Counted from the first letter of the stretch, positions 8,221-62,602 are shown. The stretch: DNA of 64,000 bases from Pseudomonadota bacterium (GCA_021848325.1 JAJZUU010000004.1:8720-72719), one strand, 5' to 3'. Numbers and translations: made by a program. Notes: generated by a model not told the origin, from the sequence alone.

Positions 8221-8531
8221 GGCTTCTCCGGCGCGTCTTGCTTCAGCAGGTCATCGGGGGCGATGGCGGAACGGCAGATCTCGACCACCTTGCGCCGGCC
8301 GTGCGCGCCGTGCTTGAGGCTCACCTGCCGGCGCGGCACCGCAAAGGTCCGCGCCAGGAAATCGAGCAATTCGGCGTTCGCCTTGCCGTCCACGGCTGCC
8401 GCCGCCACCTTGACCTTGAGCGCGTCCCCGTGCAGACCCGCCACGCAGTTCGCGCGGGAATTGGGTTGCACATGCACTGTCAGCGACAGGCACTGTCGCT
8501 GCGGATCAAGGCAGTACCAGGGGGCGGGCAT
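8217..8531 (-). CDS. yggU: DUF167 / YggU family protein
   Basis: 104 aa. LTVHVQPNSRAN...GDALKVKVAAAAVDGKANAELLDFLA...V.L..G...R.K is the DUF167 pattern. Confidence 0.8.
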   Translation of the reverse strand: MPAPWYCLDPQRQCLSLTVHVQPNSRANCVAGLHGDALKVKVAAAAVDGKANAELLDFLARTFAVPRRQVSLKHGAHGRRKVVEICRSAIAPDDLLKQDAPEKP

Positions 8532-8543
8532 GGGCCGTCCGGA

Positions 8544-16158: not shown

Positions 16159-16569
16159 TTAAAACGGCTTGACCACCACCAGGATCACGTCGGCGATCAG
16201 GATCAGCCCGGGGAACTCGTTGTACCAGCGGTAGAACACATGGCCATGGCGGTTGCGGTCGTGCTTGAAGTCCTGCACCAGCTTGGCGCAGTGCGCGTGG
16301 TAGACCACCAGGAGGGAGGTCAGGGCGACCTTGAGGTGCAGCCAGCCGCCGTGGAAGCCGTAGCCCAGCCATAGCCAAAGCCCCAGCGCCAGGGCGGCCA
16401 CGCCCCCCAACGTCATGATGTAGAGCAGTTTCTTCTCCATGACCTTGAACCGCTCGTTGGTGTTGGCGTCGTCACTCATGGCATGGTAGACGAACAGGCG
16501 CGGCAGATAGAACAGTCCGGCGAACCAGGTCACCATGAAGATGATGTGAAACGATTTCACCCAAAGCAT
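16159..16569 (-). CDS. hemJ: protoporphyrinogen IX oxidase HemJ
   Basis: 136-aa membrane protein. MLWVKSFHIIFMVTWFAGLFYLPRLFVYH is the characteristic HemJ N-terminus. Confidence 0.85.
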   Translation of the reverse strand: MLWVKSFHIIFMVTWFAGLFYLPRLFVYHAMSDDANTNERFKVMEKKLLYIMTLGGVAALALGLWLWLGYGFHGGWLHLKVALTSLLVVYHAHCAKLVQDFKHDRNRHGHVFYRWYNEFPGLILIADVILVVVKPF

Positions 16570-16671
16570 GTCTGTGTCCTTGGTTGGAGAACGCGGGAAG
16601 CGCCCCCGGTGTCTTCAGAAACCGGGCACACTATACCCCATCCACGCCGATTGCGGAAGCACAAGGAACCG

Positions 16672-17199
16672 ATGCCGAACCTGCCCGAACGCTTGAAAAG
16701 GCTGCGCCCCAGCCCCCTCACCCTGATCCTGATCGCCCTGATCGCCTATTTCTGGTTCCGCCCCCCGGCGCGGATCAGCGACCAGGACAGGCCTGTACCC
16801 AACGTACAGGCCGTCTCCCTTGCGGGCAAGCCGCTCGACCTGGCCGACTGGCGCGGCAAGGTGGTGCTGGTCAACTTCTGGGCCACGTGGTGTCCCTATT
16901 GCCGGCACGAAATGCCCGCCATGGAGAAGTTCTACCGGGACTATCGCGGCAAAGGGTTCGAAATGGTGGCCTTCAGCATCGACGACGACCCGGCCAAGGT
17001 CAGGCAGTTCATGACCGCCGAGGGCTACCGTTTCCCGGTGGCCATGAGTTCTCCTCAGATCAGCGCGGCGTTCGGCGGTGTCAGCCTGGTGCCCGCCTCG
17101 TTCGTGATCGACAAGCAGGGAAGGATACGCAAGAAGGTCAGCGGGCAGGTCTACTACGGCAGGCTGGAGGACCTGGTGGCACCGCTGCTGAAGGAATAA
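16672..17199 (+). CDS. TlpA/ResA-like periplasmic thiol:disulfide oxidoreductase
   Basis: ATG at 16672 inside track ORF 16483..17199. Signal anchor, then GKVVLVNFWATWCPYCRHEMP (WCxxC thioredoxin motif). Confidence 0.8.
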   Translation: MPNLPERLKRLRPSPLTLILIALIAYFWFRPPARISDQDRPVPNVQAVSLAGKPLDLADWRGKVVLVNFWATWCPYCRHEMPAMEKFYRDYRGKGFEMVAFSIDDDPAKVRQFMTAEGYRFPVAMSSPQISAAFGGVSLVPASFVIDKQGRIRKKVSGQVYYGRLEDLVAPLLKE

Positions 17200-17734: not shown

Positions 17735-18243
17735 GTATCCTCCCTCAGTTCTCGTTCGATCAGCGCCTGAAGCTTGCCGAAATCCATGTTGCCGACGGTG
17801 CGCTGAACCACATGGCCGCTCTTGTCGATGACGAACGTGGTCGGGGTCAGTTGGATGTCCCCGAAGGCCTTGGCGACGCTGCCGTTCGCGTCGATGGCGA
17901 CGACGAAAGGCAAGCCGCTCTTGTGAGTATAGTTCAGCACGTACTGGGGGGTGTCGTAACTCATCGCCACCGCCACCGTTTCCAGTCCGCGCCCGTGGAA
18001 TTTGCGGTACACCCGGGCCAGTTCTGGCATCTCCTCAACGCAGCCGGGGCAACTGGTGGCCCAGAAGTTGACCAGCACCACCTTGCCGCGCAGGGCGGTC
18101 AACGGGATCTTTTCTCCGCTCAGGGACGTGAAGGTCACGGCCGGCGCGGCGGGTTTTTCCATCAATACGGCGGCCAGCCCGCCCACCAGGGCGAGGGCGA
18201 GCGCCGCAACGGCGATGCGTTTTCCAAGGGGGGAGAGGTTCAC
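17731..18243 (-). CDS. TlpA-like thiol:disulfide oxidoreductase (track start is a TTG at 18273; GTG at 18243 with a GGAAG SD looks better)
   Basis: GKVVLVNFWATSCPGCVEEMP thioredoxin motif preceded by a signal anchor. Stop/start overlap with the DinB gene (17731-17734). Confidence 0.75.
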   Translation of the reverse strand: MNLSPLGKRIAVAALALALVGGLAAVLMEKPAAPAVTFTSLSGEKIPLTALRGKVVLVNFWATSCPGCVEEMPELARVYRKFHGRGLETVAVAMSYDTPQYVLNYTHKSGLPFVVAIDANGSVAKAFGDIQLTPTTFVIDKSGHVVQRTVGNMDFGKLQALIERELREDT

Positions 18244-18279
18244 GTTGGACTTCCAGGATAAGGTTGTGGCCAATGGTGG

Positions 18280-42713: not shown

Positions 42714-44978
42714 ATGCGCATTTTGTTCACTTTGTTGTTGTTATTCCCGCTCTACGCCCAGGCCCTGGTGGAAGGCGATCTGCTGGCGCCGGAACAGGCA
42801 TTCAAGCTTTCCGCGCGCCTGGTGGACGCGGGCCATGTGGAAGTCCGCTACCAGATCGCCGATGGCTACTACCTCTACCGCAGCAAGTTCAAATTCTCGG
42901 CCGAGCCTGCCGGGGTATCGTTGGGAACGCCCCAGTTTCCGGCGGGAAAGGTGAAGCAGGACGACTTTTTCGGCGCGGTGGAAACCTATCGCCATGAAGT
43001 CAAGATCGACCTCCCGCTCCAGGTAAGCGACAGTTCCGTCCGCACCATAACCCTCAAGGCCACCGCCCAGGGCTGCGCCGACGCCGGCGTGTGCTATCCG
43101 CCGGTGCAGGAGACGGCGCAGTTGAAGCTGCCGGCCCCGCCTGCCGCCAACGCCGGCCCGGGCGGCCAGGCCGCCCTAACCTCGCTCGGCGACGACGGGG
43201 CGAGCGCAGGGGGCGGGTTTCTGCCCCCCGACCTGGCCTTCGGCCTGAAGGTGTCGGTCAAGGACGGGGACACCCTGGCGGCGGACTTCAAGCCCGCCGC
43301 AAGCTACTACCTGTACCGGGACAAGATCCATTTTTCCCTGCGGGACAGCGCGGGAATCAGCATCGCCAAGGTCGCCCTGCCCGCCGGCGACGTCGAGACC
43401 GACCCGACCTTCGGCAAGCTCGTGGTGTACCACCAGCCGTTCCGCGCGGAGATCGGCCTGAAACGCGATGACCCGGCGCGCACCGGGCTGACGCTGTTGG
43501 CGAGCTACCAGGGATGCAGCGAGAAAGGGGTGTGCTATCCCCCCATCGAAAAGGCGTTTACCCTTACCCTGCCCCAGTTGTCTCAGACGTCTCAGGCGGC
43601 CCCGGCGGTGCCCGCTTCCGCCCAGCCGCAGGCCGGGCCCGTCCTCGCCCAGCAACAGCCCGCCGCGGCAGAGTCATCCGAATCGTCAAAGATCGCCGCC
43701 CTGTTCAAGGGAGGAAACTTCGCGCTGATCGTGGCCTTTTTCTTCGGTGCGGGGCTGTTGCTCGCCTTCACCCCCTGCGTGTTCCCCATGATTCCGATCC
43801 TGTCCGGGATCATCGCCGGCCAGGGCCGCCACCTCACCAAGAGCCGCTCCCTGGTGCTCTCGCTGTCCTATGTGCTCGGCATGGCGATCACCTATGCCGC
43901 CGCCGGCGTGGCCGCCGGGCTGTCGGGCACGCTGCTGTCGGCCGCCATGCAGAATCCCTGGGTATTGGGCGGGTTCGCCCTGGTGTTCGTGGCCCTGTCC
44001 CTGTCCATGTTCGGGTTTTATGAACTGCAGTTGCCCAATTTTTTGCAAAGCAAGTTCTCCAACGCCAGCAACCGGATGAAGGGAGGCAGCACGGTGGGCG
44101 TGCTGGTCATGGGCGCACTGTCCGCCCTGATCGTAGGGCCCTGCGTGGCGGCTCCGCTGGCCGGCGCCCTGCTCTATATCGGCCAGACCCACAACGTCTG
44201 GCTGGGCGGCTCGGCCCTGTTCGCCATGGCGTTGGGCATGGGCGTTCCACTGATCCTGGTGGGGGTGTCCGCGGGGGCCCTGCTGCCCAAGGCAGGAGCG
44301 TGGATGAATGCGGTGAAGGGTTTCTTCGGGGTACTTCTGCTTGGGGTGGCCATCTGGCTCATTTCCCCGGTAATCGCGCCGTTGGCCGTAATGCTGCTAT
44401 GGGCCTCCCTGTTGATCATTTCCGCCATGTACCTGCGGGCCCTCGATCCGTTGCCCCCCGCGGCCCACGGTTTTGCCAGGCTGTGGAAGGGCGTGGGGGT
44501 GATCGCCCTGGTTGCGGGGGTGGCGCTGCTGATCGGCGCCTTGAGCGGGGGGCGCGACGTGCTGCAACCGCTGGCCGGTCTGCGCGCTTCAGCCAGTACC
44601 CAGGGTGCCGCCGCGGCGCCTTTGAAGTTTGAACGGGTGGGCAGTGTGGCCGAGCTGGAGCAGCGTCTGGCCGCTGCCCGCGGCCGCTACGTCATGCTTG
44701 ATTTCTACGCCGACTGGTGCGTCTCCTGCAAGGAATTCGAACGCTTCACCTTTGCCGACCCGCGGGTGGCGGAGAGGCTTAAGGACGCGGTACTGCTCCA
44801 GGTCGACGTGACCGCCGACAACGCCGGGGACAAGGCCTTGCTGCAGAAATTCGGGCTGTTCGGGCCGCCGGGGATCATTTTCTTTGACCGGAACGGGCGC
44901 GAGATCAAGTCGGCCCGCACCATCGGCTATACTCCCCCGGAACGGTTTCTGACCACCCTTGATACGGCGTTCCGTTAG
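42714..44978 (+). CDS. dsbD: thiol:disulfide interchange protein DsbD with a duplicated N-terminal alpha domain
   Basis: 754 aa. Two tandem DsbD-alpha-like domains (each with YYLYR and GC.....CYPP), a central 8-TM beta domain ([18 protein letters not shown]), and a C-terminal thioredoxin gamma domain ([13 protein letters not shown]). Confidence 0.88.
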
Positions 44979-50857: not shown

Positions 50858-52688
50858 ATCGGCATAGGGGGCGGCCATTATAGGCCGCGCCCCTGCCACA
50901 CCACCCGGCATGCGGGTCCGCACCGGGCGGTTCGAGAAGTTGAGGTCATGAGAGGCGGGGTACACCCAGATGATCGAAGTAGGCAATGGTCAGCACCCGT
51001 TTGATGTCGCCATCGCTGTTGCGCCACCAACTCCGCGAGTTTCCTGCTACCCGCTGCGCTACAGCCTCGGATGCGCCGAGCCTACGCAGTTCCCTGTGTA
51101 TGGTTGATCCGTGCTTCCAGTGCTTGAGATGGATCGCCCGGAGCCGGTGCCTCAACCATTCGTCCAGCGTGAGCCAGACTCGTGGCGTTTGCGCCAGCCC
51201 GAAATAGGCTTTCCCTCCCAAGAGGTAAGGCCGTAGTCGTTCGATGACCTCCGCCATGCTGCGTCCGCCCGAGCGCCGGGTCAGTTCTCGCGCCCGTTGC
51301 TTGAACGTCGCCAGCGCTTTAGCTGCCACGCCCCGTCTGACCTCGTCCCGATAGAACCAGAAGCTGTAGCCCAAGAACTTGCGTCCTCGGATGCTCGCTA
51401 CCGCGCTCTTGGTCTCATTGACCTTGAGCTGGAGCTTGTCATAGCACTGCCGCAGCATGGCCATTACTCGCTCACCCGCCCGCCGACTGCGCACATACAC
51501 GTTGCAGTCATCGGCGTAGCGCGCAAAGCAATGGCCCCGCCGTTCCAATTCCTTATCCACTTCGTCCAGCAGAACATTGGCCAGCAGCGGCGACAGCGGG
51601 CCGCCTTGCGGTGTCCCCTGATACCGCTCTTGCACCACGCCATCGCTCATGATCCCGCTGTTCAGGTACGCCCGTATCAGCCGAATCACTCCGGTATCCG
51701 GGATGCGCCTGCGCAGGCGGTCGATGAGAATGTCGTGATTGACCCGGTCAAAGAACTTCTCCAGGTCAACATCAACCACGATCCGCCGACCCGACTTCAC
51801 GTACGCCTGCGCGGCCAAGACCGCATCACGCGCCCGCCGTCCGGGCCGGAAACCGTAGCTGTGTTCGCTGAATGTGGGATCAAGTATCGGTTGCAGTACT
51901 TGCAGCAGTGCCTGCTGGTTCAACCGATCCGTCACCGTCGGAATGCCCAGCTCGCGCTCGCCTCCGTCCGGCTTCGGTATCGTCACCCGTCGTACCGGAC
52001 TGGGCCGGTACATCCCCCGCAGCAGTTGTTCTCGTAGCGCTGGCCATGTGGTGACGAGTTGCCGGGCGGTCTGGTCTATGTCCAGTCCGTCCACGCCCGC
52101 CGCTCCCTTGTTGGCCCGCACGCGCTTGAATGCCTGCTGCAGGTTCTCTCTCGTCAGCGCCGCAGCGAGCAGCGCCGACCCCGTGCTCTCGGTGTCTTGT
52201 CGCGGGCTGTTCGCTTCGTCGCTGGCAGGATCGCGCCCGGCTTCACCGTGCGTTACGCCCACCCGCTCCGCGGGTGCGGACTTCTGACGCGTTGCGTTCA
52301 ACATCGACATGGCCTTAAACACTTCTCCTCGTTCGGCCCTTCGCTCCATCTTGGCAGTTACTACGGCCTCGGCTGACTCCTCGCTCCGTGTTTCCACGTC
52401 GGCCTTTCAGCCATCAGGCGAGGTCTCCCCGGGTAAGAACGCATTCCTTCGCTGCACAACCGCCGGATTTACGCCGCTCCGCCTTGATCACGAGAGCTTC
52501 GCGGAATCATGCCCGCTCGCCCTGCTCGGCAACGCCTTCTATCCGATTCTTGTTCATCGGCTCGCAACTTCGCTCCACGCTTCCTCCCCACATTCGGTCG
52601 CCCTCATGCAGTTGCGCTTCGCTTCGTTCGCTGTGATCAACTTACGGCGGGACTTCCACCCGCAAGAATGCGCCCGTGCCGGGCGCAC
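50858..52688 (-). mobile_element. ORF-containing bacterial group II intron, compact (about 1.83 kb), class C-like; 3' boundary approximate
   Basis: The minus strand begins GTGCGCCCGGCACGGG at 52688 (GUGYG consensus). A domain V-like 34-nt helix lies at 50901-50933 (ACCGCCCGG/UGCG..CGCA/UG bulge/CCGGGUGGU), 12 nt after the RT stop. A domain VI-like helix with bulged UA lies at ~50860-50898. The RT/maturase ORF sits in domain IV. Confidence 0.8.
50946..52310 (-). CDS. group II intron reverse transcriptase/maturase (no endonuclease domain)
   Basis: RT domains including FARYADDCNVYV (YADD). The maturase/X domain follows, and the protein ends without an HNH/En module. ATG at 52310 preferred; the track ORF begins at a GTG at 52397. 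Confidence 0.85.
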   Translation of the reverse strand: MSMLNATRQKSAPAERVGVTHGEAGRDPASDEANSPRQDTESTGSALLAAALTRENLQQAFKRVRANKGAAGVDGLDIDQTARQLVTTWPALREQLLRGMYRPSPVRRVTIPKPDGGERELGIPTVTDRLNQQALLQVLQPILDPTFSEHSYGFRPGRRARDAVLAAQAYVKSGRRIVVDVDLEKFFDRVNHDILIDRLRRRIPDTGVIRLIRAYLNSGIMSDGVVQERYQGTPQGGPLSPLLANVLLDEVDKELERRGHCFARYADDCNVYVRSRRAGERVMAMLRQCYDKLQLKVNETKSAVASIRGRKFLGYSFWFYRDEVRRGVAAKALATFKQRARELTRRSGGRSMAEVIERLRPYLLGGKAYFGLAQTPRVWLTLDEWLRHRLRAIHLKHWKHGSTIHRELRRLGASEAVAQRVAGNSRSWWRNSDGDIKRVLTIAYFDHLGVPRLS

Positions 52689-53741: not shown

Positions 53742-53972
53742 TTATTCCAAATCTTTTTTTATCTGCTGATATTCCTCGCGGCTGATTTCCCCACGGGCGT
53801 AGCGCTGGTCAAGAAGTTCACGTGCGTTTTCTTCTCTCTTGTGCGTTCCATGGTTGCCGCACATGGGCAAGCCGCCGCTGCGGAAGAGGAAGACCAGTAT
53901 CACGATGAGAAAGATCAGCGGAAATATCCACATCAACGGAAACATGCCCCACGGTCCATAGTTCCACATCAT
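53742..53972 (-). CDS. SHOCT-domain small membrane protein
   Basis: 76 aa. One TM segment, then ELLDQRYARGEISREEYQQIKKDL (SHOCT). Strong AAGGAGG SD. Its ATG shares one base with the ArsR stop (TAATG). Confidence 0.7.
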   Translation of the reverse strand: MMWNYGPWGMFPLMWIFPLIFLIVILVFLFRSGGLPMCGNHGTHKREENARELLDQRYARGEISREEYQQIKKDLE

Positions 53973-54346
53973 TAAGTTACCTCCTTGGTTTTCGCCGCCG
54001 CCGAATTGTGCCCAATTGGACGGCTATGCTGTTTGACCTCGCTTGCGACCGCGGCTGGGTGTGCGTCCAGCCAATGTTTCAAGTCGTGCAGAATGCGCAA
54101 CAACTCGGTGTCGGCGAGGCAGTAATAGATAAAAGCTCCGCGACGTTTGGCCCGGACGAATCCCGCCTCACGCAACACGCGCAGGTGGAATGACACATTG
54201 GTTTGCCCCAAGCCCGTTGCATTGATGATGTCTGTCACCGGACGGCATTCCAGTCCTAAACCACACAAGATGCGTAACCGGTTCGGTTCTCCGAGCACTT
54301 TGAGTGCCGGAATAATCTGCTCTTGATCGTGTTCGGGAAATTTCAT
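53972..54346 (-). CDS. ArsR/SmtB-family metalloregulator
   Basis: 124 aa. LKVLGEPNRLRILCGL....PVTDIINATGLGQTNVSFHLRVLREAGFV winged helix-turn-helix. Confidence 0.85.
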   Translation of the reverse strand: MKFPEHDQEQIIPALKVLGEPNRLRILCGLGLECRPVTDIINATGLGQTNVSFHLRVLREAGFVRAKRRGAFIYYCLADTELLRILHDLKHWLDAHPAAVASEVKQHSRPIGHNSAAAKTKEVT

Positions 54347-54366: not shown

Positions 54367-54390
54367 TTATATGAGTGGAAACTCATATAA
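54367..54390. promoter_or_regulatory. candidate ArsR/SmtB operator (10-4-10 perfect palindrome)
   Basis: TTATATGAGT-GGAA-ACTCATATAA lies 21-44 nt upstream of the ArsR ATG (54346), inside an AT-rich promoter-like stretch. Confidence 0.5.
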
Positions 54391-54631
54391 TACCCGACTC
54401 GGTGTCAAACGTATCAGTGTGTTCAAGAGCTGCTGACTTAGCGCTGTGGATGGGGGGTCTGGGAGCGGATGGGTTCCGCACTCTGAGGGGGTCATGCGTC
54501 TCGTGCCTTCCGTATGACGTTACCCAGGTGTGCCTTCCTTCCCTATCGTCAAAGGGCCCCGAATACTTCTTGCACTGCCAGCTACGCTCAGTTTATCATT
54601 ATCGCAATCGTTTAAATGATGAGCGCTCGCG

Positions 54632-55026: not shown

Positions 55027-57192
55027 ATGAGTGCGGACATGGGCAAAAAGACGCTTGAGTTGGAAGTCGAAGGACTCTGCTGCACGGAGTGCGCAGTAGC
55101 CGTCGAAAAAACCCTCTCCCACCGGGCAGGCGTGGATCAGGTGAAGATCCTCTCGGCCGCCGAGAAGGTGCGACTCAACTACGACGAGAGCAAGACCAGC
55201 AAAGAGGAACTGGCGGATTCGATTGCGGCCTTGGGCTACAAGGTCCGGTACAAGGGCGAGGACGTTGCGGCCACGGCCAAAGCAGGAGGGTCGCGAGTGA
55301 GCCGCGAGGTCGTTCGATTCGGGTTCGTGGCCCTGGTTGCGCTCATCGCGTTGCTCGAAATCGGCGGGGAGTATCTGGGCTGGTTCGAGAAGGCGCAGGA
55401 GAGGATTCCGGTGCCGGTTCTGCTCGCGACCATAGCCATCGGAGGCTACCCCATCTTCAAGCGCGCCGTGCTCGGCGCGATCAGCAAACAGATCAACGTC
55501 GACTCCATGATGAGCGTGGGGATTCTGAGCGCCGCCGCCATCGGCCAATATACTTCCTCCATGCTCATCGTTTTCTTCATGGGGATCGCGCACTTCCTGG
55601 AGGAATTCACCACCAGAAAATCCCGGAAAGCCATTCAAGAGCTGGTCAAGTTCTCCCCCAAAACGGCCCACGTCAAGTTAAACGGGCAAGAGCGGGAGAT
55701 CGCCGTGGAGGCATTACGGGTCGGCGACATCGTTGCGGTGCGCCCGGGCGAACAAATCCCTGCGGACGGCGCAGTCGTAGCCGGTGTGAGTTCCGTGAAT
55801 CAGGCCTCCATCACCGGCGAGAGCATGCCTGTGGCGAAACAGGCGGGAAGCGAGGTCTTCGCCGCGACGATGAACGAACGCGGCTATCTGGAAGTGAAGG
55901 TGAGCCGAATCGGCGCCGACACGACCTTTGGCAAGATTATCAAGCTCGTCGAAGAGGCCGAAGCGGTCAAGGCGCCTGTGCAGAAGTTCGCCGACCGGTT
56001 TACCACCTATTTCCTGCCCGCTGCGATCGGGGTTGCCGTCCTCACTTATCTCATTTCTGGCGAGCTCATCTACGCGATCTCGGTCCTCGTCGCCGCATGC
56101 CCGTGCGCCGTGGGATTGGCGACGCCGCTGTCCGTGATTGCCAGTGTCGGAAGCGGCGCCAGGAGAGGACTCCTGATCAAGGGCGGTCTTTACCTCGAAC
56201 GGCTGGCAAAGGTCGATTGCGTGGTCATGGATAAAACCGGAACCGTGACGCTTGGCAAGCCCCAGGTCACCGACGTGGTGTCGTTGAACGGATTACCGGC
56301 GGAGGGTCTGCTCAAGCACGCGGCGAGCCTCGAAAAAAATTCCGAGCATCCGATCGCCTCGGCGATCCTGTCGTATGCCGGGGCGCAAAACGTTCTTGCG
56401 CCGGATGCCGAGCACTTCGAATACACCGTAGGGCGAGGGCTTCGTGGCATCGTGGAAGGGAAAGCGGTTGTGCTGGGGAACGTTCGCTTGCTGCAAGGCT
56501 TGAGGATATCGCTTTCCCCGCACGCCGAATCGGTCATCAGCGCGCTCGGAAACGAGGGCAAGACCGCTCTCCTGTTGGCCATCAACGGCGTGGCCGAGGG
56601 AATTGTCGGCGTCGCGGACGTGATGCGCGAGGAAGTGCCCGCGGTGATCGAAGCACTGCGGCAGCTCGGTATCAAGCGTCTCATGCTGCTGACCGGCGAC
56701 AACGAGCGGGTGGCGGCAGCAATCGCCAACAAGCTCGGCATCACGGATTACCGATCCGGCCTGTTGCCGGAAGACAAGATTGAAATCGTCAAAGCACTAC
56801 AGCGCGCGGGGTTAACGGTGGCTATGGTTGGCGACGGCGTCAACGACGCGCCTGCCTTGGCGCAAGCCGACGTGGGGATCGCCATGGGCGTGGTGGGCAG
56901 CGACGTCGCGTTGGAGGCTGCCCATGTGGCACTGATGCGAGACGATTGGAGCCAGATTCCACAGGCTATCCAGGTGGGCCGCCGGACCTACCGGGTGATT
57001 CGGCAGAATATTTTTCTCGGCATCACCTGGGACATTGTCACGATGGGGCTTGCCTCGGTGGGGATTATCGGCCCCGTCCTGGCCGCAGCAACCGAGGTGG
57101 TCCCGGATGTGTTCGTATCACTCAACTCGGCCCGGCTTCTCAAAGCACCCGAAAGACTGTTCAGTAGAACGGCAGTTGCCGATGGATCCTAA
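55027..57192 (+). CDS. heavy-metal translocating P1B-type ATPase
   Basis: ATG at 55027 gives 721 aa. N-terminal HMA domain with GLCCTECA, TGES, TM CPC (VAACPCAVGLATP), DKTGT, SEHPIA, GDGVNDAP. Confidence 0.9.
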   Translation: MSADMGKKTLELEVEGLCCTECAVAVEKTLSHRAGVDQVKILSAAEKVRLNYDESKTSKEELADSIAALGYKVRYKGEDVAATAKAGGSRVSREVVRFGFVALVALIALLEIGGEYLGWFEKAQERIPVPVLLATIAIGGYPIFKRAVLGAISKQINVDSMMSVGILSAAAIGQYTSSMLIVFFMGIAHFLEEFTTRKSRKAIQELVKFSPKTAHVKLNGQEREIAVEALRVGDIVAVRPGEQIPADGAVVAGVSSVNQASITGESMPVAKQAGSEVFAATMNERGYLEVKVSRIGADTTFGKIIKLVEEAEAVKAPVQKFADRFTTYFLPAAIGVAVLTYLISGELIYAISVLVAACPCAVGLATPLSVIASVGSGARRGLLIKGGLYLERLAKVDCVVMDKTGTVTLGKPQVTDVVSLNGLPAEGLLKHAASLEKNSEHPIASAILSYAGAQNVLAPDAEHFEYTVGRGLRGIVEGKAVVLGNVRLLQGLRISLSPHAESVISALGNEGKTALLLAINGVAEGIVGVADVMREEVPAVIEALRQLGIKRLMLLTGDNERVAAAIANKLGITDYRSGLLPEDKIEIVKALQRAGLTVAMVGDGVNDAPALAQADVGIAMGVVGSDVALEAAHVALMRDDWSQIPQAIQVGRRTYRVIRQNIFLGITWDIVTMGLASVGIIGPVLAAATEVVPDVFVSLNSARLLKAPERLFSRTAVADGS

Positions 57193-57221: not shown

Positions 57222-57743
57222 ATGAAAGGAGATATGGAAATGAAGAAATCAATCAAGACCGTTACGCGAAGAACCACATCAAGCAGTACCACCAGGAAGC
57301 GCGGATTCTGGATTGCAGGCGCACTCGCGTTAGGCGCTGCACTTGCGACGGGGACGGCGCTATTGGCCGGCGGCGGAGTCGCCAACGCTGGCTTACCCGA
57401 CCTGCTGGGCAAGGCGCAGCCGTCGCTGCCCAAGGGAGCGTTGCAGGTGCAAGACCTGGAGGCCGATCCAAAAGGCTATACCGGCAAGATTCTCGTGCGC
57501 GGCGTCGTCGCGAAAGTTTCTCCCAATGATCCACAGCTCTTCGCATTGATCGACTCGCGCGAGGCCCGTGTCTGCCAGGACCTGCATTGCGCCAAGTTCT
57601 ACCTGCCGATCAAGGTCAAGGATACGAATCTCAAACCCTGGGATGAGGTGAACGTGCGCGGGATCATGACGGAGGACACGGACAAAAAAATGGTTTATCT
57701 CCGCGCCGACTCGGTAGAGAACCTGGGCTCGATCAAGAAATGA
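57222..57743 (+). CDS. hypothetical exported protein with C-x4-C/His motif
   Basis: 173 aa. Basic N-region and Ala/Gly-rich hydrophobic segment, then a ~110-aa beta-rich-looking domain containing RVCQDLHC. Its stop overlaps the next ATG (ATGA). No family recognised. Confidence 0.55.
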   Translation: MKGDMEMKKSIKTVTRRTTSSSTTRKRGFWIAGALALGAALATGTALLAGGGVANAGLPDLLGKAQPSLPKGALQVQDLEADPKGYTGKILVRGVVAKVSPNDPQLFALIDSREARVCQDLHCAKFYLPIKVKDTNLKPWDEVNVRGIMTEDTDKKMVYLRADSVENLGSIKK

Positions 57744-58903
57744 ACCTCGGCAAACTGGTGTGGCGCAACCTGCTGCGCCGGCGCGGGCGCTTTGTCTTCA
57801 CCTTGGCGGGCGTGAGCGTGGGCATGGCGGCGTTCGTCGCGCTTATGACCATTGGGCAAGGCCTGACCACGGAAATCAAGAAGCAGGCGCAAGGACTTGG
57901 CGCCAATCTGGTGGTCACGCCCAAGGGCTGGTGCGCCTATGAACAAATCTCGGTGCTCACCGGAGAGCAACTGCCCGAGGCGATCCCCATGTCCGAGCTG
58001 GAGAAAATTCGAGCCGTGCCGGGTGTCAAGAGCGCCGTTCCCTACCTCAACGAGAAGACTGCGTTCCGCAACCAGCCGGTGCCGGTAATCGGCGTGTGGC
58101 CTGAAGAGATGCGCGCGTTGCAGAAGTGGAGTATCGATTCCGGGCGCTACTTCAACTCTCTGGATGAGCGTGGGATCGTGGTCGGGTCGGCAATCGCCAA
58201 ACAGTTCAAGCTCCGGCCGGGCGACGAATTCACCGTGCGCGGCAAGACGATTCCCGTGATAGGTATTCTTCGGGAAGCGGGCAGCAAGGACGACATCGCC
58301 ACCTTCATTCCGCTCGCTCTTGCGCAGCAAATTTATGACGTGCAGGACAAGGTGTCGTTCATCGCCGTCCAGGTGAGTGACCTCGAAAAAATCGAGGCAA
58401 CTAGCCTTAAAATCCAGGAAGTTGCCAATGTCGCCGTCGTCACCGACAAGCAACTGCTGTCTTCGGTCCTGTCCATCGTGGGTTCGGTCGGTGCGGCCAT
58501 GCAGGCGGTGGCGGCAGTCGGCGTACTTGCTGCGGCGTTCGGTATCGTCAATACCCTGCTCACCGCAGTGCATGAACGCCGGCGCGAGATCGGCATTCTG
58601 CAGGCGCTCGGCAGCACCCGACGTACATTGTTCCTGGCATTCATGCTCGAATCCGGGCTCTACGGCTTGCTCGGCGGGATTCTGGGCGTGACGATTGGCG
58701 TTCTCGCTGCTTACCTGTTCGGCTCTTACCTCACCGACAATGCGTTCACAGCGTCACTGCATCAGTCACAGACGGTGGCGATCGACTATGGGACCATCCT
58801 TCTCACTTTGGGCTTTTCCGTGTGTCTCGCACTCTTCGCTGGTCTTTACCCGGCGTACCGGGCGACCAAGCTCTCTCCGGTGGAGGCCATGCGCTATGTC
58901 TAA
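57740..58903 (+). CDS. FtsX/MacB-type ABC transporter permease
   Basis: 387 aa. TM1, then a ~210-aa periplasmic domain, then three C-terminal TM segments (FtsX domain). RRREIGILQALGSTR linker motif. Confidence 0.85.
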   Translation: MNLGKLVWRNLLRRRGRFVFTLAGVSVGMAAFVALMTIGQGLTTEIKKQAQGLGANLVVTPKGWCAYEQISVLTGEQLPEAIPMSELEKIRAVPGVKSAVPYLNEKTAFRNQPVPVIGVWPEEMRALQKWSIDSGRYFNSLDERGIVVGSAIAKQFKLRPGDEFTVRGKTIPVIGILREAGSKDDIATFIPLALAQQIYDVQDKVSFIAVQVSDLEKIEATSLKIQEVANVAVVTDKQLLSSVLSIVGSVGAAMQAVAAVGVLAAAFGIVNTLLTAVHERRREIGILQALGSTRRTLFLAFMLESGLYGLLGGILGVTIGVLAAYLFGSYLTDNAFTASLHQSQTVAIDYGTILLTLGFSVCLALFAGLYPAYRATKLSPVEAMRYV

Positions 58904-59585
58904 CACTGTCATCGAACTGGAGAAAGTGAGCAAAACTTACGGCAGTGGCGCCGCTGAGGCGAAGGCGGTCTCGGAGGTGTCGATGACCGTGGAGCGCGGC
59001 GGCTGGGTCGCGATCATGGGGCCTTCCGGGCATGGCAAAAGTACGCTGCTGCAACTCATCGGCGGCCTGGACCGCGCCAGCGCCGGCCGCATTGTGCTGG
59101 ACGGCGCGGAGCTTGGCACCCTCGATGCCGCGGAACTGGCGGCTGTGCGCGGCAAAAAAATCGGTTTCGTGTTCCAGTTCTTCAACCTGATGCCGCACCT
59201 TACGGCGCTGGAAAATGTCGAGATCGCGCTGTGGCTCGGCGGCGGAACCCACAACAACGGGCGCGCCATGGAGCTGCTGGAACGCTTTGGCTTGGGAGAC
59301 AAGGCCCACCACCTACCGAGCATGCTCTCCGGTGGCCAGCAGCAGCGCGTTGCGATTGCGCGCGCCTTGGCCAACGAGCCCGATATTCTTCTCATGGACG
59401 AGCCCACCGGCAACCTGGACTCCGGCTCCGAGGTGGAGCTGCTGACCTTACTCGGAGAGCTAAACAAGGCAGGCAAAACACTGCTGATGGTCACCCACAA
59501 CCCGGCGGTGGCGCAATGTGCCGAACGCGTGCTGCAAGTCAAAGACGGCAGGATCGTTGGGGATGCACGGAATGGAAAACATTAG
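58896..59585 (+). CDS. ABC transporter ATP-binding protein (LolD/MacB ATPase family)
   Basis: 229 aa. Walker A GPSGHGKST, Q-loop, signature LSGGQQQRVAIARAL, Walker B ILLMDEPTGNLD. 8-nt overlap with the permease. Confidence 0.9.
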   Translation: MSNTVIELEKVSKTYGSGAAEAKAVSEVSMTVERGGWVAIMGPSGHGKSTLLQLIGGLDRASAGRIVLDGAELGTLDAAELAAVRGKKIGFVFQFFNLMPHLTALENVEIALWLGGGTHNNGRAMELLERFGLGDKAHHLPSMLSGGQQQRVAIARALANEPDILLMDEPTGNLDSGSEVELLTLLGELNKAGKTLLMVTHNPAVAQCAERVLQVKDGRIVGDARNGKH

Positions 59586-60078
59586 CATGCTTTACAACGG
59601 ACTACGTTGGGCTGTGTTGGTCATCGCCCTGAGCGCTCCTTTAAGTACGCAGGCGGTAGCCCCACCAGTGCCCACGTTCACGACCATGGAAGGGAAGCAG
59701 ATCCGTTTGAGCGATCTGCGCGGCAAGATCGTACTCATCCATTTCTGGGCGACGAGCTGCGGGATTTGCCTTGTGGAAATGCCTGATCTCATCCAAACCT
59801 ATCAGCAGTTTCGCAAGCGGGGATTCGAAGTGATCGCGGTGGCCATGCACTACGACCAGCCCGGCGACATCAAGGCGTATGTCCGCAAACAAGGGCTGCC
59901 GTTTCCTGTCGTCTTCGACCAGGAAGGCAAGCTCGCGAGTGAGTTCAACCAGGTCGGCGTGACGCCGACGACGTTCCTCATCGACGCGTCGGGCAGACGG
60001 ATATCGAAGACGGTGGGGATCATCGACTTCGGCAAGCTGCGTGCCTTCCTGAAATCGGCGGACGTGGAAGGACGCTAA
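59572..60078 (+). CDS. TlpA-like periplasmic thioredoxin (start 59563, 59572 or 59587)
   Basis: Signal peptide (LRWAVLVIALSAPLSTQA), then GKIVLIHFWATSCGICLVEMP. Confidence 0.8.
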   Translation: MENISMLYNGLRWAVLVIALSAPLSTQAVAPPVPTFTTMEGKQIRLSDLRGKIVLIHFWATSCGICLVEMPDLIQTYQQFRKRGFEVIAVAMHYDQPGDIKAYVRKQGLPFPVVFDQEGKLASEFNQVGVTPTTFLIDASGRRISKTVGIIDFGKLRAFLKSADVEGR

Positions 60079-60095: not shown

Positions 60096-61523
60096 ATGAA
60101 AAATCACTTCGTTCCATTCGCCGGCTTTTTTCTCCTCGCCGCCGCGCTTGCCGGATGCGCAAGTTTCCAATCGCATCCCATCGTGCCAGCCGATACGGCG
60201 GCTGCATTTGAAGCACGCACGCTACATAGCGCGGGTCTCAAACAGTTCCTGGAACGTAATCTCGGGCGAGAAGCCATTCCATGGCCATCCGGCTCATTAA
60301 ATCTTGAGACGCTCACTCTTGCGGCCTTTTATTACAGCCCCGATCTGGATGTGGAGCGCGCCAAATGGGGCGTGGCGGAAGCCGGGATGATCACGGCCGG
60401 TGCACGCCCCAACCCTAACCTCGGCATCTCCGCAAAGCACAATAACGATGCGCCTAACGGCGTCTCGCCCTGGACCCTGGGCTGGAATCTGGATATCACG
60501 ATCGAAACCGCCGGCAAGCGGGGGTATCGCTTAGAACATGCCCAACACCTGTCCGAGGCGGCCCGTTTCAACATTGCGAGTGTCGCGTGGCAAGTGCGAA
60601 GCCGGGTACGAGCTAATCTGGTAGAGCTTTATGGGGCGCGCGAATCCGAGGCGCTGCTGGGCCAGGAGGAAGCAGTTCAGAAACACCTGGTCGGTCTGCT
60701 TGAGCGGCGCCTCGCGTTAGGCGACATTTCCCTGCCGATCGTCACGCAAGCCCACATCGCTCTGGAGCAAACGCGATTGGCCCTGCGGGACGCGCAAATG
60801 CGCAGCAGCGAAGCGCTTGCACGTCTGGCTGCGGCGATCGGGCTTCCGGCCAGCGCCTTGGAGGGGGTCAGCCTATCGCTTGAGGATGTCACCCGCATTC
60901 CCGCAGATGCCAATCTCACCTCCTCCGATGTGCGCCGCCAAGCCCTCTTGAATCGGGCCGACATTTTGGCCGCACTCGCCGAATACGAGGCAAGCCAGTC
61001 CGCCCTGCGCACCGAGATCGCCAAACAGTATCCGGACATCGGTTTGGGGCCGGGCTACCTCTGGGACGCGGGCCAAGTCAAATGGTCCTTGGGATTGTCC
61101 CTGGTGCCGCCGATCTTGAACCGCAACGAGGGCCCCATCGCCGAGACAGAGGCGCGCCGCAAGCAAGCTGCCGCGACCTTTATTGCGCTGCAGGCAAAAG
61201 TGATCGGCGAAATTGACCTGGCACTGAGGAGTTATCGGGCCGCCCTGGAGAAAACCACTGCCGCGGAAACCGTGCTCGCCTCCCAGAAGCGATACCAACA
61301 ATCCGTCGGCGCCCAATTCAACGCCGGGGAAGCGGATCGGCTGTCGCTCTTAAGCGCCCGGCTGGAGCTTTCGGCGGCCGAGCTTGCGCGGCTCCAAGCC
61401 GTGATGACCGCACAGCAGGCATTGGGACGGCTGGAAGACGCGATGCAACGTCCGGCCGCGTCCGAGCCGCCCCTTTCGGCAATGATCGAGAAAACCCCAA
61501 GAACAGAGGAAAACAAGCCATGA
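60096..61523 (+). CDS. outer-membrane efflux lipoprotein (TolC/CzcC/NodT family)
   Basis: 475 aa. Lipobox LAGC. Two OEP repeats with coiled segments. Confidence 0.85.
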   Translation: MKNHFVPFAGFFLLAAALAGCASFQSHPIVPADTAAAFEARTLHSAGLKQFLERNLGREAIPWPSGSLNLETLTLAAFYYSPDLDVERAKWGVAEAGMITAGARPNPNLGISAKHNNDAPNGVSPWTLGWNLDITIETAGKRGYRLEHAQHLSEAARFNIASVAWQVRSRVRANLVELYGARESEALLGQEEAVQKHLVGLLERRLALGDISLPIVTQAHIALEQTRLALRDAQMRSSEALARLAAAIGLPASALEGVSLSLEDVTRIPADANLTSSDVRRQALLNRADILAALAEYEASQSALRTEIAKQYPDIGLGPGYLWDAGQVKWSLGLSLVPPILNRNEGPIAETEARRKQAAATFIALQAKVIGEIDLALRSYRAALEKTTAAETVLASQKRYQQSVGAQFNAGEADRLSLLSARLELSAAELARLQAVMTAQQALGRLEDAMQRPAASEPPLSAMIEKTPRTEENKP

Positions 61524-62602
61524 AGCTCAAGCCTATGGTCGCAATGACCGCCGTGGCGGCCATCCTTGCCTTCTCGGCCTGGCATCTGACGCAAGGGCGG
61601 GAAGAGGCCGCCGAATCGAAGCCCGAGCAACCAGCGGAGGCGCCTGCGTCATCCGGGAAAGCCGGCGAGCAGGTCGTCGTGCTCGACCAGGCCGCAGAAA
61701 TGAAGAGCGGAGTGGCCGCCGCGCCGCTTCAGCCTATTTCCTATCACCGGCAGGTTCAGGCTTATGGAGCGGTTCTGCCCCTCCAGGGGCTCATCGATCT
61801 GCGCAATAGTATTGAGACGGCGCGCTCCCAACGGGAGAAGGCGGCGGCAATGCTCGAAACATCCCGCAGGGAATATGAACGGCTCAAGGTGTTGCATGCC
61901 GATGACCGAAACGTATCCGACAAAGCCCTGCAAACTGCGGAGGCTGCGTGGAAAACCGACGAAGCGAACGTGCGTGCCGCCCGTGCGGCGTTGAACGCGA
62001 TCGAGCAAAATGCGCGGCAGCAGTGGGGCGGGGTGCTCGCCAAGGCAGCTTCGGATGGATCGCCGCTGTTCAAGCGTCTGGTAGAACAGCAGGAGGTGCT
62101 GCTCCAGATTACGGCGCCTTCCGGGGTACACATTCCGCAACCGCCCCGAACCGCCGGGATTCGCCTGGCTGACGAAGCGTTCGGCACCGCCACCCTGATT
62201 TCCCCCGCCCCGCGCACCGATGCACGCCTTCAGGGAACGAGCTACTTCTATTCCTCCGCCGCACCCAGCCTGCTGCCCGGCATGAACATCACGGCGTACC
62301 TTCCGTACGGAGAAAAAACTCAAGGCGTGGTCATCCCCGCTTCCGCCGTCGTTTGGTGGCAGGGAAAGGCCTGGATTTATGTTCAAGAGGGTGCGCAGCA
62401 CTACGTCCGCCAGGAAATTCCCACGGACAACCCCATCGAGGATGGCTGGTTCGCATCCAGGGCGTTCAAGGCGGGTGAAAAAATCGTCGTGACCGGTGCG
62501 CAGATGCTGCTTTCACAGGAATTCCGCTCGCAAATCCAGTCGGGAGAGGAAGGTGAAAGTGGCGAAAAAGGCGAGGCGGGCGAGAAAGGCAAAAAAGAAT
62601 GA
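61520..62602 (+). CDS. efflux RND periplasmic adaptor (membrane fusion protein)
   Basis: 360 aa. Signal anchor, coiled-coil hairpin region, beta-barrel C-terminal domain. ATGA overlaps on both sides. Gly/Glu/Lys-rich tail. Confidence 0.8.
   Translation: MKLKPMVAMTAVAAILAFSAWHLTQGREEAAESKPEQPAEAPASSGKAGEQVVVLDQAAEMKSGVAAAPLQPISYHRQVQAYGAVLPLQGLIDLRNSIETARSQREKAAAMLETSRREYERLKVLHADDRNVSDKALQTAEAAWKTDEANVRAARAALNAIEQNARQQWGGVLAKAASDGSPLFKRLVEQQEVLLQITAPSGVHIPQPPRTAGIRLADEAFGTATLISPAPRTDARLQGTSYFYSSAAPSLLPGMNITAYLPYGEKTQGVVIPASAVVWWQGKAWIYVQEGAQHYVRQEIPTDNPIEDGWFASRAFKAGEKIVVTGAQMLLSQEFRSQIQSGEEGESGEKGEAGEKGKKE

Follow-up and report, generated by a model that had tools for sequence, protein, structure and literature searches.

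One of the questions raised by a metal island in a Pseudomonadota bacterium concerns why an ATP-driven machine of the MacB type should be encoded together with a small exported protein of no recognisable family and a thioredoxin. The island lies in a 64,000-nucleotide stretch of DNA (GCA_021848325.1, JAJZUU010000004.1:8720-72719), referred to here as the window, and the genes in question form a row at 57222-60078 that encodes the small protein, an FtsX/MacB-type ATP-binding cassette (ABC) permease, the cognate ATPase and a TlpA-like redoxin. An earlier note on this DNA had described four overlapping or abutting genes between a P-type ATPase and a resistance-nodulation-division (RND) pump, and all four open reading frames (ORFs) are found there on the + strand, with their coordinates confirmed. 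These genes belong to a conserved, mobile and so far unnamed metal cassette, at the centre of which is a new protein that partners a MacB-type machine. Of the functions that we can infer for it, one in periplasmic metal handling by thiols has the best support. In the form that we favour, and to which we would give an even chance, this is an envelope cassette for thiophilic divalent metals, most likely Cd, Pb or Zn, which is repressed by CadC (by MerR in some lineages) and which combines a type VII ABC machine with a protein of the oligonucleotide/oligosaccharide-binding (OB) fold.

That the four genes act as a functional unit, as the earlier note had proposed, is borne out by their order. Genes in the window were placed by ORF translation, families were assigned by Pfam and NCBIfam scans and the neighbourhoods of related genes were mapped by tblastn. 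Scanning one genome per species gave 25 loci, of which 23 carry the OB protein, permease, ATPase and redoxin genes in that order, one is ended by its contig and one, in Paraburkholderia gardini, is an orphan beside an insertion sequence element. The order therefore holds at 23 of the 24 informative species-level loci, and it is found again in further genomes, a plasmid and metagenomes, a recurrence far beyond chance. The junctions are tight: in the window the OB gene and the permease gene overlap by 4 nt (57740-57743), the permease and ATPase genes by 8 nt (58896-58903), and the redoxin gene, with a probable start at either 59572 or 59587, overlaps or directly adjoins the end of the ATPase gene, whose stop codon is at 59583-59585, with no prominent terminator-like site on the + strand of the gene row. 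Metal islands are mosaics, and the adjoining RND set is not conserved with the module, so that four chance neighbours in a crowded island, with no joint function, might be imagined; but this explanation is refuted by the synteny, given the same order and the same overlapping junctions in dozens of loci on different mobile elements, and has next to no likelihood. The outer-membrane factor (OMF), membrane fusion protein (MFP) and RND genes that follow the redoxin gene in the window do so in none of the related loci, and the RND set has been rejected as part of the system.

The cassette is also mobile, and its setting is that of a metal island throughout, as the earlier note had said of the window. 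The range covers Burkholderiales, Rhodocyclales, Vibrio and Pseudomonas, with a permease homolog in Thermodesulfovibrionales, and the neighbours are always metal genes (pbrRABC, mer, CDF, RND, SMR and further P1B ATPases). In Ralstonia pickettii, for instance, the cassette lies beside pbrR-pbrA-pbrBC, and in Dechloromonas hortensis beside merR and a Tn3 transposase. On a Vibrio campbellii plasmid it forms part of a Tn3-family element as ArsR-hypothetical-permease-ATPase-TlpA, under generic PGAP names. A mobile version, labelled 'MULTISPECIES Pseudomonadota' and present in P. aeruginosa among others, starts with a resolvase, ArsR-SMR-SMR-P1B and a divergently encoded full-length DsbD, continues as CadC-MtrA/DUF4346-OB-permease-ATPase-TlpA followed by a stand-alone N-terminal domain of DsbD (nDsbD), and ends with LysR and then a mer operon or an integrase. 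Megablast searches of plasmids with the window cassette and with the mobile version gave trivial matches only, the protein-level plasmid search gave the one Vibrio plasmid, and complete E. coli genomes gave no match to the cassette.

The extent of the unit requires a revision, for the four-gene module of the earlier note stands as a linkage group and not as a boundary. A CadC-type repressor with its own operator leads the row, a P1B ATPase or a protein with MtrA and DUF4346 domains is usual, and a stand-alone DsbD N-domain is often present, such that the full unit comprises five to eight genes headed by the repressor and a conserved promoter/operator. Its evolutionary core is smaller and consists of the OB protein, the permease and the ATPase, with the redoxin arm as a frequent accessory, because distant members keep these three genes together while the redoxin gene moves or is absent. 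Three such members, with about 30-40% identity in the OB protein, retain the linkage: L034 reads ArsR-P1B-OB-FtsX-ABC, L035 reads ArsR-P1B-redoxin-OB-FtsX-ABC and L066 reads MerR-P1B(CSC)-CcmG-like-OB-FtsX-ABC-TauE-methyltransferase-SHOCT. In a metagenome scan the permease and ATPase genes come next after every OB gene of the P0130-like subgroup for which sequence is available downstream, and after them MtrA/DUF4346 in four cases and a redoxin in none.

Wherever the sequence reaches far enough, the module has a CadC-like gene upstream of it, and by its sequence the window's regulator is a CadC-type member of the alpha3N ArsR/SmtB sensors of Cd, Pb and Zn: it scores 74.7 bits against the 55-bit cut-off of NF033788, has its best alignments among solved proteins with the CadC proteins Lmo1102 of Listeria and pI258 of S. 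aureus (1U2W/3F72), and keeps both CadC Cys pairs, the N-terminal C-x3-C (residues 11-15) and the CVC of helix 3 (LCVCD). The regulator of L066 belongs instead to the MerR family and has three Cys placed as in CadR/PbrR/ZntR-type regulators. Ahead of the regulator gene in the window lie a -35 element TTGCAC (54570-54575) and a -10 element TATCAT (54594-54599), together with an imperfect palindrome ATCATTATCGCAATCGTTTAAATGAT at 54596-54621 whose arms are TCATT...AATGA. All 21 loci examined, among them those of the Vibrio plasmid and of the mobile Pseudomonadota version, have an element of consensus TATCATTTTCGCAAATGTCTAAATGA at 10-25 nt before the cadC-like gene, and the palindrome itself has the consensus ATCATTTTCGCAAATGTCTAAATGA across them. 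We infer that this element acts as a CadC-repressed promoter/operator for the whole gene row, and the cassette would be expected to be metal induced. In an Rfam scan that covered 49.5-64 kb, group II intron domains were the only matches, with no riboswitch in the cassette. The arrangement resembles the cadCA operon of S. aureus pI258 and Listeria in its CadC-type repressor with both Cys pairs, which in many of the loci is followed by a P1B ATPase, but the cassette adds four to five envelope genes, and the ATPase here is not obligatory and belongs to atypical subtypes.

The cadC and OB genes are separated by a variable slot, which is occupied by a P1B ATPase in 11 of 22 loci and empty in 6. The window's P1B ATPase has GLCCTEC in its HMA domain, CPC in a transmembrane (TM) segment and DKTGT, as well as a non-canonical last TM region (ATEVVPD) that seems to differ from the ZntA and CopA motifs. 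The Ralstonia/L066-type enzyme (L027 7950-10004; L066 3071-5173) has no HMA domain, a Cys-rich N-terminus and CSC in place of CPC, and ATPases with the CSC motif are among the occupants of the slot. The remaining 5 of the 22 loci, and the mobile version with the widest spread, have after cadC a gene for a cytoplasmic protein of about 390 aa that combines the domains MtrA (PF04208) and PterinBD-DUF4346 (PF14251) and is rich in Cys at its N-terminus (KCHRCGC...CLGCEVC); this gene either swaps with the P1B ATPase gene in the slot or, as in a distant group, follows the ABC ATPase gene. No paper naming DUF4346 was found in the searchable full-text literature. The presence of this protein, of a small S-adenosylmethionine (SAM) methyltransferase that recurs near the module, and of one OB homolog that shares an operon with ArsR, a methyltransferase and an HgcAB-like fusion of corrinoid and ferredoxin parts would suit an explanation in which the substrate is an organometallic or methylated species, or undergoes a corrinoid-dependent metal(loid) transformation, with the MtrA/DUF4346 protein or a methyltransferase making the modification and the OB/ABC proteins handling the product at the membrane. 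We regard this as improbable, since the MtrA-like gene is absent from the window and from many loci, the core occurs without any methyl-transfer gene in L001, L005, L006, L008, L034 and L069, and CadC-type sensors respond to ions.

The partner protein from which the cassette takes its character is the product of the first of the four genes. Its true start is probably the ATG at 57240, giving 167 aa, a choice favoured by an AAAGGAG ribosome-binding site at 57225-57231 and by the 167-aa length of most homologs. As the earlier note had supposed, it belongs to no recognisable family: there is no match in Pfam, NCBIfam or PDB sequences and no solved relative. The 166 close homologs, counted at cluster level and mostly from Burkholderiales and Rhodocyclales, are all annotated as 'hypothetical', as are the 221 small proteins of 120-170 aa recovered in a profile search of 1.8 billion representatives. 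A structural check of the 173-aa ORF had also been suggested in the note. An AlphaFold2 model built with 58 homologs has a predicted local distance difference test score of 85-94 for residues 72-173, with a disordered N-terminus, and Foldseek against the PDB returns the OB folds of RPA14, Ten1/Stn1 and aminoacyl-tRNA synthetase anticodon-binding domains (E about 1e-4, target-normalised TM-score about 0.6), so that residues 72-173 are predicted to form an OB fold. The N-terminus resembles a Sec signal; cleavage would fall at A-N-A, and the tail that comes next, LPDLLGKAQP, is conserved. Alternative assignments have been discarded: a Tat signal, as the twin Arg is not conserved; a lipoprotein in the window's lineage, which has no lipobox; and membership of the YgiW/BOF or CusF families, for which the hhalign probability is below 1% with approximate YgiW and CusF sequences, the OB fold in general being all that is shared.

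The protein has a conserved acidic and Cys cluster. The earlier note had drawn attention to a Cys/His motif, RVCQDLHC, which is present in the window's protein. The Cys pair holds up, C118 being invariant and C123 nearly so among close homologs, but the His does not, position 122 varying between H, N and S; the His has been rejected as a ligand, and the protein is better described as a Cys2 (+Asp/Glu) protein. Across about 220 representatives the hallmark is D111-x2-E114-x3-C118-x4-C123, and 63 diverse members show no variation at E114, C118, C123 or G147, with D111 kept in at least 90% of them. CxxxxC is retained in 142 of 149 distant representatives, the exceptions being mostly fragments. 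In the model a helix spans residues 112-117, with D111 just before it, and the i, i+3, i+7 spacing of D111, E114 and C118 would therefore place these three on one face, with C123 in the next loop. Conservation and model together suggest a metal site of the D/E/C/C kind rather than a plain disulfide. A natural negative control linking the Cys motif to the ABC genes is provided by OB paralogs without the Cys pair (L061-L065, L067, L068; for instance L063 5992-6354), a lipoprotein subgroup that has no adjoining ABC genes.

The OB family has some further variants. Homolog P0161, which keeps the Cys pair, is encoded inside a mer island (L031 5609-9281; also L032 and L033) in an operon that reads ArsR, OB protein, a 173-aa protein with four TM segments and a GCCGSP motif, SAM methyltransferase, a 416-aa fused HgcAB-like protein and a Csp copper storage protein; the fused protein has a CdhD domain, a cap-helix-like NAWCAGGAG motif, TM helices and two 4Fe-4S motifs. 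Family member P0241 (229 aa) has a C-terminal extension of about 100 aa that contains QCCRFLTF and has no Pfam match. One database member of the OB cluster (P0397, 541 aa; cluster of L072 8564-9004) has about the length of the OB protein and permease combined, which probably reflects a frameshift or read-through where the two genes overlap (ATGA), not a true fusion.

The machine with which the OB protein is partnered is, as had been claimed, an FtsX/MacB-type permease with a LolD-like ATPase. The permease matches PF12704 (MacB_PCD) with 104.8 bits over residues 19-227 and PF02687 (FtsX) with 86 bits over residues 257-380, and a structure search with its AlphaFold2 model gives LolE, MacB, Spr0694 and HrtB with E values of 1e-13 to 1e-19, and also YtrF and YbbP, which on both fold prediction and profile grounds places it in the type VII (MacB/LolCE/FtsX-fold) superfamily. 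It has the four-TM FtsX domain and the large MacB_PCD (Porter and Sabre) domain between TM1 and TM2, along with a cytoplasmic ATPase whose catalytic motifs are intact (Walker A GPSGHGKST, signature LSGGQQQR, Walker B LLMDEPT and a readable H-loop) and whose gene directly follows that of the permease in all mapped loci. The nearest NCBIfam models of the ATPase are the MacB nucleotide-binding domain and LolD, both below cut-off. Judged by such cut-offs, neither the permease nor the ATPase counts as an equivalog of MacB, LolCDE or FtsEX: the MacB equivalog model gives 54 bits against a cut-off of 966, TIGR02212 gives 122 against 362, and the LolE and LolC models fall far below theirs. A conserved adaptor or OMF gene, of the kind that MacAB-TolC would entail, occurs in none of more than 50 related loci, the OMF and MFP of the window being part of an RND set unique to it, and there is a single permease gene with no lolA nearby, as opposed to LolCDE.

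A feature that the earlier note had missed is an invariant Cys in the periplasmic domain of the permease. The longest invariant block in 34 sequences, which range down to 59% identity, is the periplasmic stretch T60-P83, TPKGWCAYEQISVLTGEQLPEAIP, and the block TPKGWCAYEQISVLTGEQLP is missing from LolE and MacB. Within it Cys65 is 100% conserved down to 54-59% identity and is the sole conserved periplasmic Cys of the permease; LolE and MacB have a gap and no Cys at this place. In the model TM1 and a stalk cover residues 15-49, the first Porter strand covers 57-61, and the short helix that Cys65 caps covers 66-74. That the periplasmic domain of a homodimer should have one invariant Cys points to a role for this residue as a ligand or in redox chemistry.

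The resemblance to the Lol machinery allows another explanation, in which the OB protein is cargo and not partner: a sacrificial, metal-binding anchored protein or lipoprotein that a Lol-like ABC machine pulls from the inner membrane, once it is loaded, for delivery to the outer membrane, to vesicles or to turnover. The permease is most like LolE, the OB gene always lies immediately before the permease gene with overlapping stop and start codons, and about a quarter of distant family members have a lipobox, the remainder having an N-terminal hydrophobic anchor or signal. However, in beta-proteobacteria the protein lacks a lipobox and its site for signal peptidase I is good (A-x-A ahead of LPDLL), no LolA/LolB-like acceptor is encoded, and the loss of one protein for every few metal ions would be costly, such that this role has only a small chance of being the right one.

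The fourth gene provides the reducing arm. The earlier assignment to the TlpA-like thioredoxins agrees with the active site, WATSCGIC in the window and WATSC[SPG]IC in related loci, with matches to Redoxin (77 bits) and AhpC-TSA (89 bits), with an N-terminal signal-like segment and with the PDB relatives ResA, TlpA and CcmG. The exported thioredoxin fold and CxxC motif are those of TlpA/ResA-type reductases, yet the scores remain below the equivalog cut-offs (63 against 230 bits for TlpA, NF047696; 93 against 170 for ResA, NF002854; 45 against 123 for dsbE; the StoA model is likewise sub-threshold), and by profile score the protein thus represents a distinct subfamily. It occurs in the beta- and gamma-proteobacterial versions of the cassette, directly after the ATPase in 23 of 24 loci; in L035 and L066 it is upstream and CcmG-like. 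A stand-alone DsbD N-domain (PF11412, with a Cys pair) comes after the redoxin in 16 of 23 loci, which do not include the window and its closest relatives. As for other DsbD and redoxin genes in the window, a chromosomal DsbD of 754 aa (42714-44978) has two tandem DsbD_N domains, with tblastn matches at 42777-43130 and 43221-43574, before its TM and thioredoxin domains, and two more TlpA-like redoxins are encoded at 16483-17199 (+) and 17755-18273 (-).

Such a reductase chain could instead serve the control of thiol damage in the envelope. Here the ABC machine and an OB adaptor would extract or remodel Cys proteins or lipoproteins that have been poisoned by metal or mis-oxidised, TlpA/DsbD would re-reduce them, and the Cys residues of the OB protein and the permease would be redox-active and not ligands. 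The structural neighbours LolCDE, FtsEX-EnvC and YbbAP-TesA act on proteins or lipids and not on ions, LolE is the closest relative of the permease, and the cassette brings its own reductase chain. But the invariant Asp and Glu beside the Cys pair suit a metal site more than a redox site, the operon is tightly coupled to P1B ATPases and metal sensors, no conserved candidate client protein is encoded in the cassette, and subgroups without the redoxin exist. We consider this explanation unlikely, if worth keeping in mind.

Two other roles suggested in the earlier note, the reduction of a metal(loid) and the maturation of a periplasmic metalloprotein, have no specific support. With metal handling by thiols as the preferred reading, a mechanism can be proposed. 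The core machine would consist of a permease dimer and an ATPase dimer acting with a small exported or membrane-tethered OB-fold protein. Metal would enter the periplasm from outside or through the co-encoded P1B ATPase, the machine probably operating downstream of the latter, and would be captured by the OB protein at the D111/E114/C118/C123 site. An exchange would follow with the Cys65 that is invariant in the permease periplasmic domain, and with the Glu/Gln beside it, and ATP hydrolysis in the cytoplasm would move that domain so as to force loading or release, the direction of the hand-over being part of the proposal. The metal would thereby be kept off envelope thiols and the membrane surface. 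In the oxidising periplasm the TlpA-like reductase would hold these cysteines, its putative targets, in the reduced state, with electrons passing from DsbD to the stand-alone DsbD N-domain, which is cassette-encoded in many versions, and on to the TlpA-like protein.

Several observations weigh against this scheme. Neither a periplasmic adaptor nor an outer-membrane channel is part of the cassette, which leaves expulsion across the outer membrane unexplained. The linked ATPases are atypical, with CSC or with CPC and a non-canonical last helix, and the metal is consequently uncertain. The MtrA/DUF4346 and SAM methyltransferase partners are not accounted for by a simple ion-handling model, and a conserved periplasmic C-x4-C could be merely a structural disulfide. 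Finally, the P0130-like subgroup keeps the Cys pair without a redoxin gene, and therefore the redoxin is either dispensable in some hosts or has another target.

No system of this composition had been known to the earlier note, and none was found in the searchable full-text literature, a negative that amounts to no more than absence of evidence given the thin coverage of subscription journals. A paper on the Cd/Cu transcriptome of Nitratiruptor, considered as a possible description, concerns an ars cluster. With the type VII ABC systems (MacAB-TolC, LolCDE-LolA, FtsEX-EnvC, HrtBA and YbbAP-TesA) the cassette shares a LolD-like ATPase, separate or fused, and a dedicated extracytoplasmic partner, and the mechanism to be expected is mechanotransmission and not transmembrane transport. 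It differs in that the partner is an OB-fold Cys2 protein and not MacA, LolA, EnvC or TesA, in the unique invariant Cys-containing insertion after the first Porter strand of the permease, and in being placed under metal sensors with no adaptor or outer-membrane channel. Among these systems HrtBA extracts heme.

Individual steps of the proposed mechanism have parallels elsewhere. Metal is relayed from Cys pair to Cys pair between MerP and MerT, and is handed over in the periplasm from CopA to CusF, an OB-fold protein, and on to CusCBA; CueP is kept reduced by ScsABCD, and TlpA reduces ScoI and CoxB. The cassette is like CusF (with CopA and CusCBA) in having a small periplasmic OB-fold protein among metal efflux genes as a possible acceptor from a P1B ATPase, but there is no sequence relationship, the ligands would be Cys/Asp/Glu and not Met/His/Trp, and the partner is an ABC machine and not an RND pump. 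With ScsABCD-CueP and TlpA-ScoI/CoxB it shares a TlpA- or DsbD-like reductive branch encoded with a Cys-containing periplasmic metal protein, and by analogy with MerP-MerT a Cys-pair to Cys-pair hand-over at the membrane may be envisaged. The components of the Scs, TlpA-ScoI and Mer systems are, however, not orthologous, and the acceptor in the cassette would be an ABC permease domain.

The nearest metal-related analogue is PA4063-PA4066 / ZrgABCDE, a split MacB-type ABC system with small periplasmic proteins in a metal-regulated operon, the role of which is debated (PMC11481552). This system is Zur-regulated and induced by zinc starvation, with pyochelin-Co export as its proposed function (PMC11481552), and PA4063 is ferredoxin-like and His-rich (PMC8561739). 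A split ATPase and FtsX-type permease, small periplasmic partners and a metal-regulated operon are common to both (PMC11481552, PMC8561739), and a role of the same kind in metal acquisition or sparing, through metal supply or metallophore export, deserves mention. It is very improbable, as the sensors of the cassette are of the CadC/MerR excess-metal type and not Zur, the linkage is to efflux ATPases and mer/pbr/czc islands on transposons, and the partners are unrelated, an OB fold as against the ferredoxin-like, His-rich PA4063. The cassette also differs in its own operator, Cys2 partner and redoxin arm, and the OB protein has no sequence match in the PDB though PA4063 and ZrgA are both represented there.

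For Gram-negative bacteria the current account of how Cd, Pb and Zn are dealt with in the periplasm names RND (Czc) pumps, P1B ATPases and phosphate precipitation (Pbr). If the favoured reading is true, a new resistance principle would be added, namely an ATP-driven MacB-type machine with a Cys2 OB family that has no Pfam entry and a private reducing pathway, on a transposon-borne cassette. The substrate range of type VII ABC transporters would be widened, and orphan TlpA-like reductases and stand-alone DsbD N-domains would gain a physiological client. The boldest form of the proposal, which we hold tentatively and with the balance somewhat against it, is that of the first type VII ABC machine with an inorganic thiophilic metal ion as its substrate, Cd, Pb or Zn being moved between the Cys2-Asp-Glu site of the OB protein and a Cys pair at the permease dimer, supported by a self-encoded DsbD-nDsbD-TlpA chain and spread by Tn3/mer elements into Pseudomonas and Vibrio. 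A further link to corrinoid-dependent metal chemistry, through the MtrA/DUF4346 partner, is a possibility. The cassette spreads together with mer operons, to P. aeruginosa and to Vibrio plasmids, and is for this reason relevant to metal and antibiotic co-selection, and it is invisible to resistance-gene annotation because its genes are named 'hypothetical' or 'ABC transporter'.

Table 1. Features of the cassette and its surroundings. Positions are those of the window except in the last row, where they refer to the individual loci.
Feature	Position	Strand	Basis or remark
Conserved promoter/operator (putative)	54570..54621	+	same element in 21/21 loci examined
CadC-type ArsR/SmtB metalloregulator, 126 aa	54632..55012	+	HTH_5, NF033788
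P1B heavy-metal ATPase	55027..57192	+	TIGR01525 584 bits; HMA, E1-E2_ATPase, Hydrolase
Exported protein, predicted OB fold	57240 (probable start)..57743 (ORF from 57222, 173 aa)	+	AlphaFold2/Foldseek; without Pfam/NCBIfam/PDB sequence match
Type VII ABC permease, 387 aa	57740..58903	+	MacB_PCD + FtsX
ABC ATPase (LolD/MacB-NBD-like), 229 aa	58896..59585	+	ABC_tran (PF00005) 127 bits
TlpA/ResA-like thiol:disulfide reductase	59572 (probable start)..60078 (ORF 59518-60078)	+	Redoxin/AhpC-TSA matches
OMF	60096-61523	+	OEP match; neighbour only
MFP	61520-62602	+	RND_mfp NCBIfam-level match; neighbour only
RND pump	62602 to window end (64000), incomplete	+	ACR_tran; neighbour only
Divergent ArsR	53972-54346	-	Pfam match
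SHOCT small membrane protein	53742-53972	-	Pfam match
SAM methyltransferase, 170 aa	53211-53723	-	Pfam match
Group II intron reverse transcriptase/maturase ORF	50946-52397	-	left edge of metal island
Group II intron RNA domains (D1-D4)	52336-52607	-	Rfam
MtrA/DUF4346 loci	L007 6794-7996; L003, L004, L015, L021, L022; L030 8241-9353; L045, L047, L052; L070-L075 about 7366-8541		

The surroundings of the cassette in the window are in keeping with an origin elsewhere (Table 1). To the left of about 50.6 kb lie the core genes aroQ, accB, accC and prmA, next to which comes the group II intron, and the G+C content falls from about 0.65 to about 0.59 toward the cassette side, which therefore places the cassette in an acquired island. 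The MFP has no Pfam match at E<=0.01, weak NCBIfam adaptor matches and a Gly/Glu/Lys-rich tail. The divergent ArsR-SHOCT-methyltransferase unit is loosely associated with the cassette as an accessory: the trio recurs beside the module in L018-L020, and in L066 a methyltransferase 53% identical to that of the window, with a SHOCT protein, is encoded downstream of the module. By this unit in the window there is also a perfect 10-4-10 inverted repeat, TTATATGAGT-N4-ACTCATATAA, at 54367-54390.

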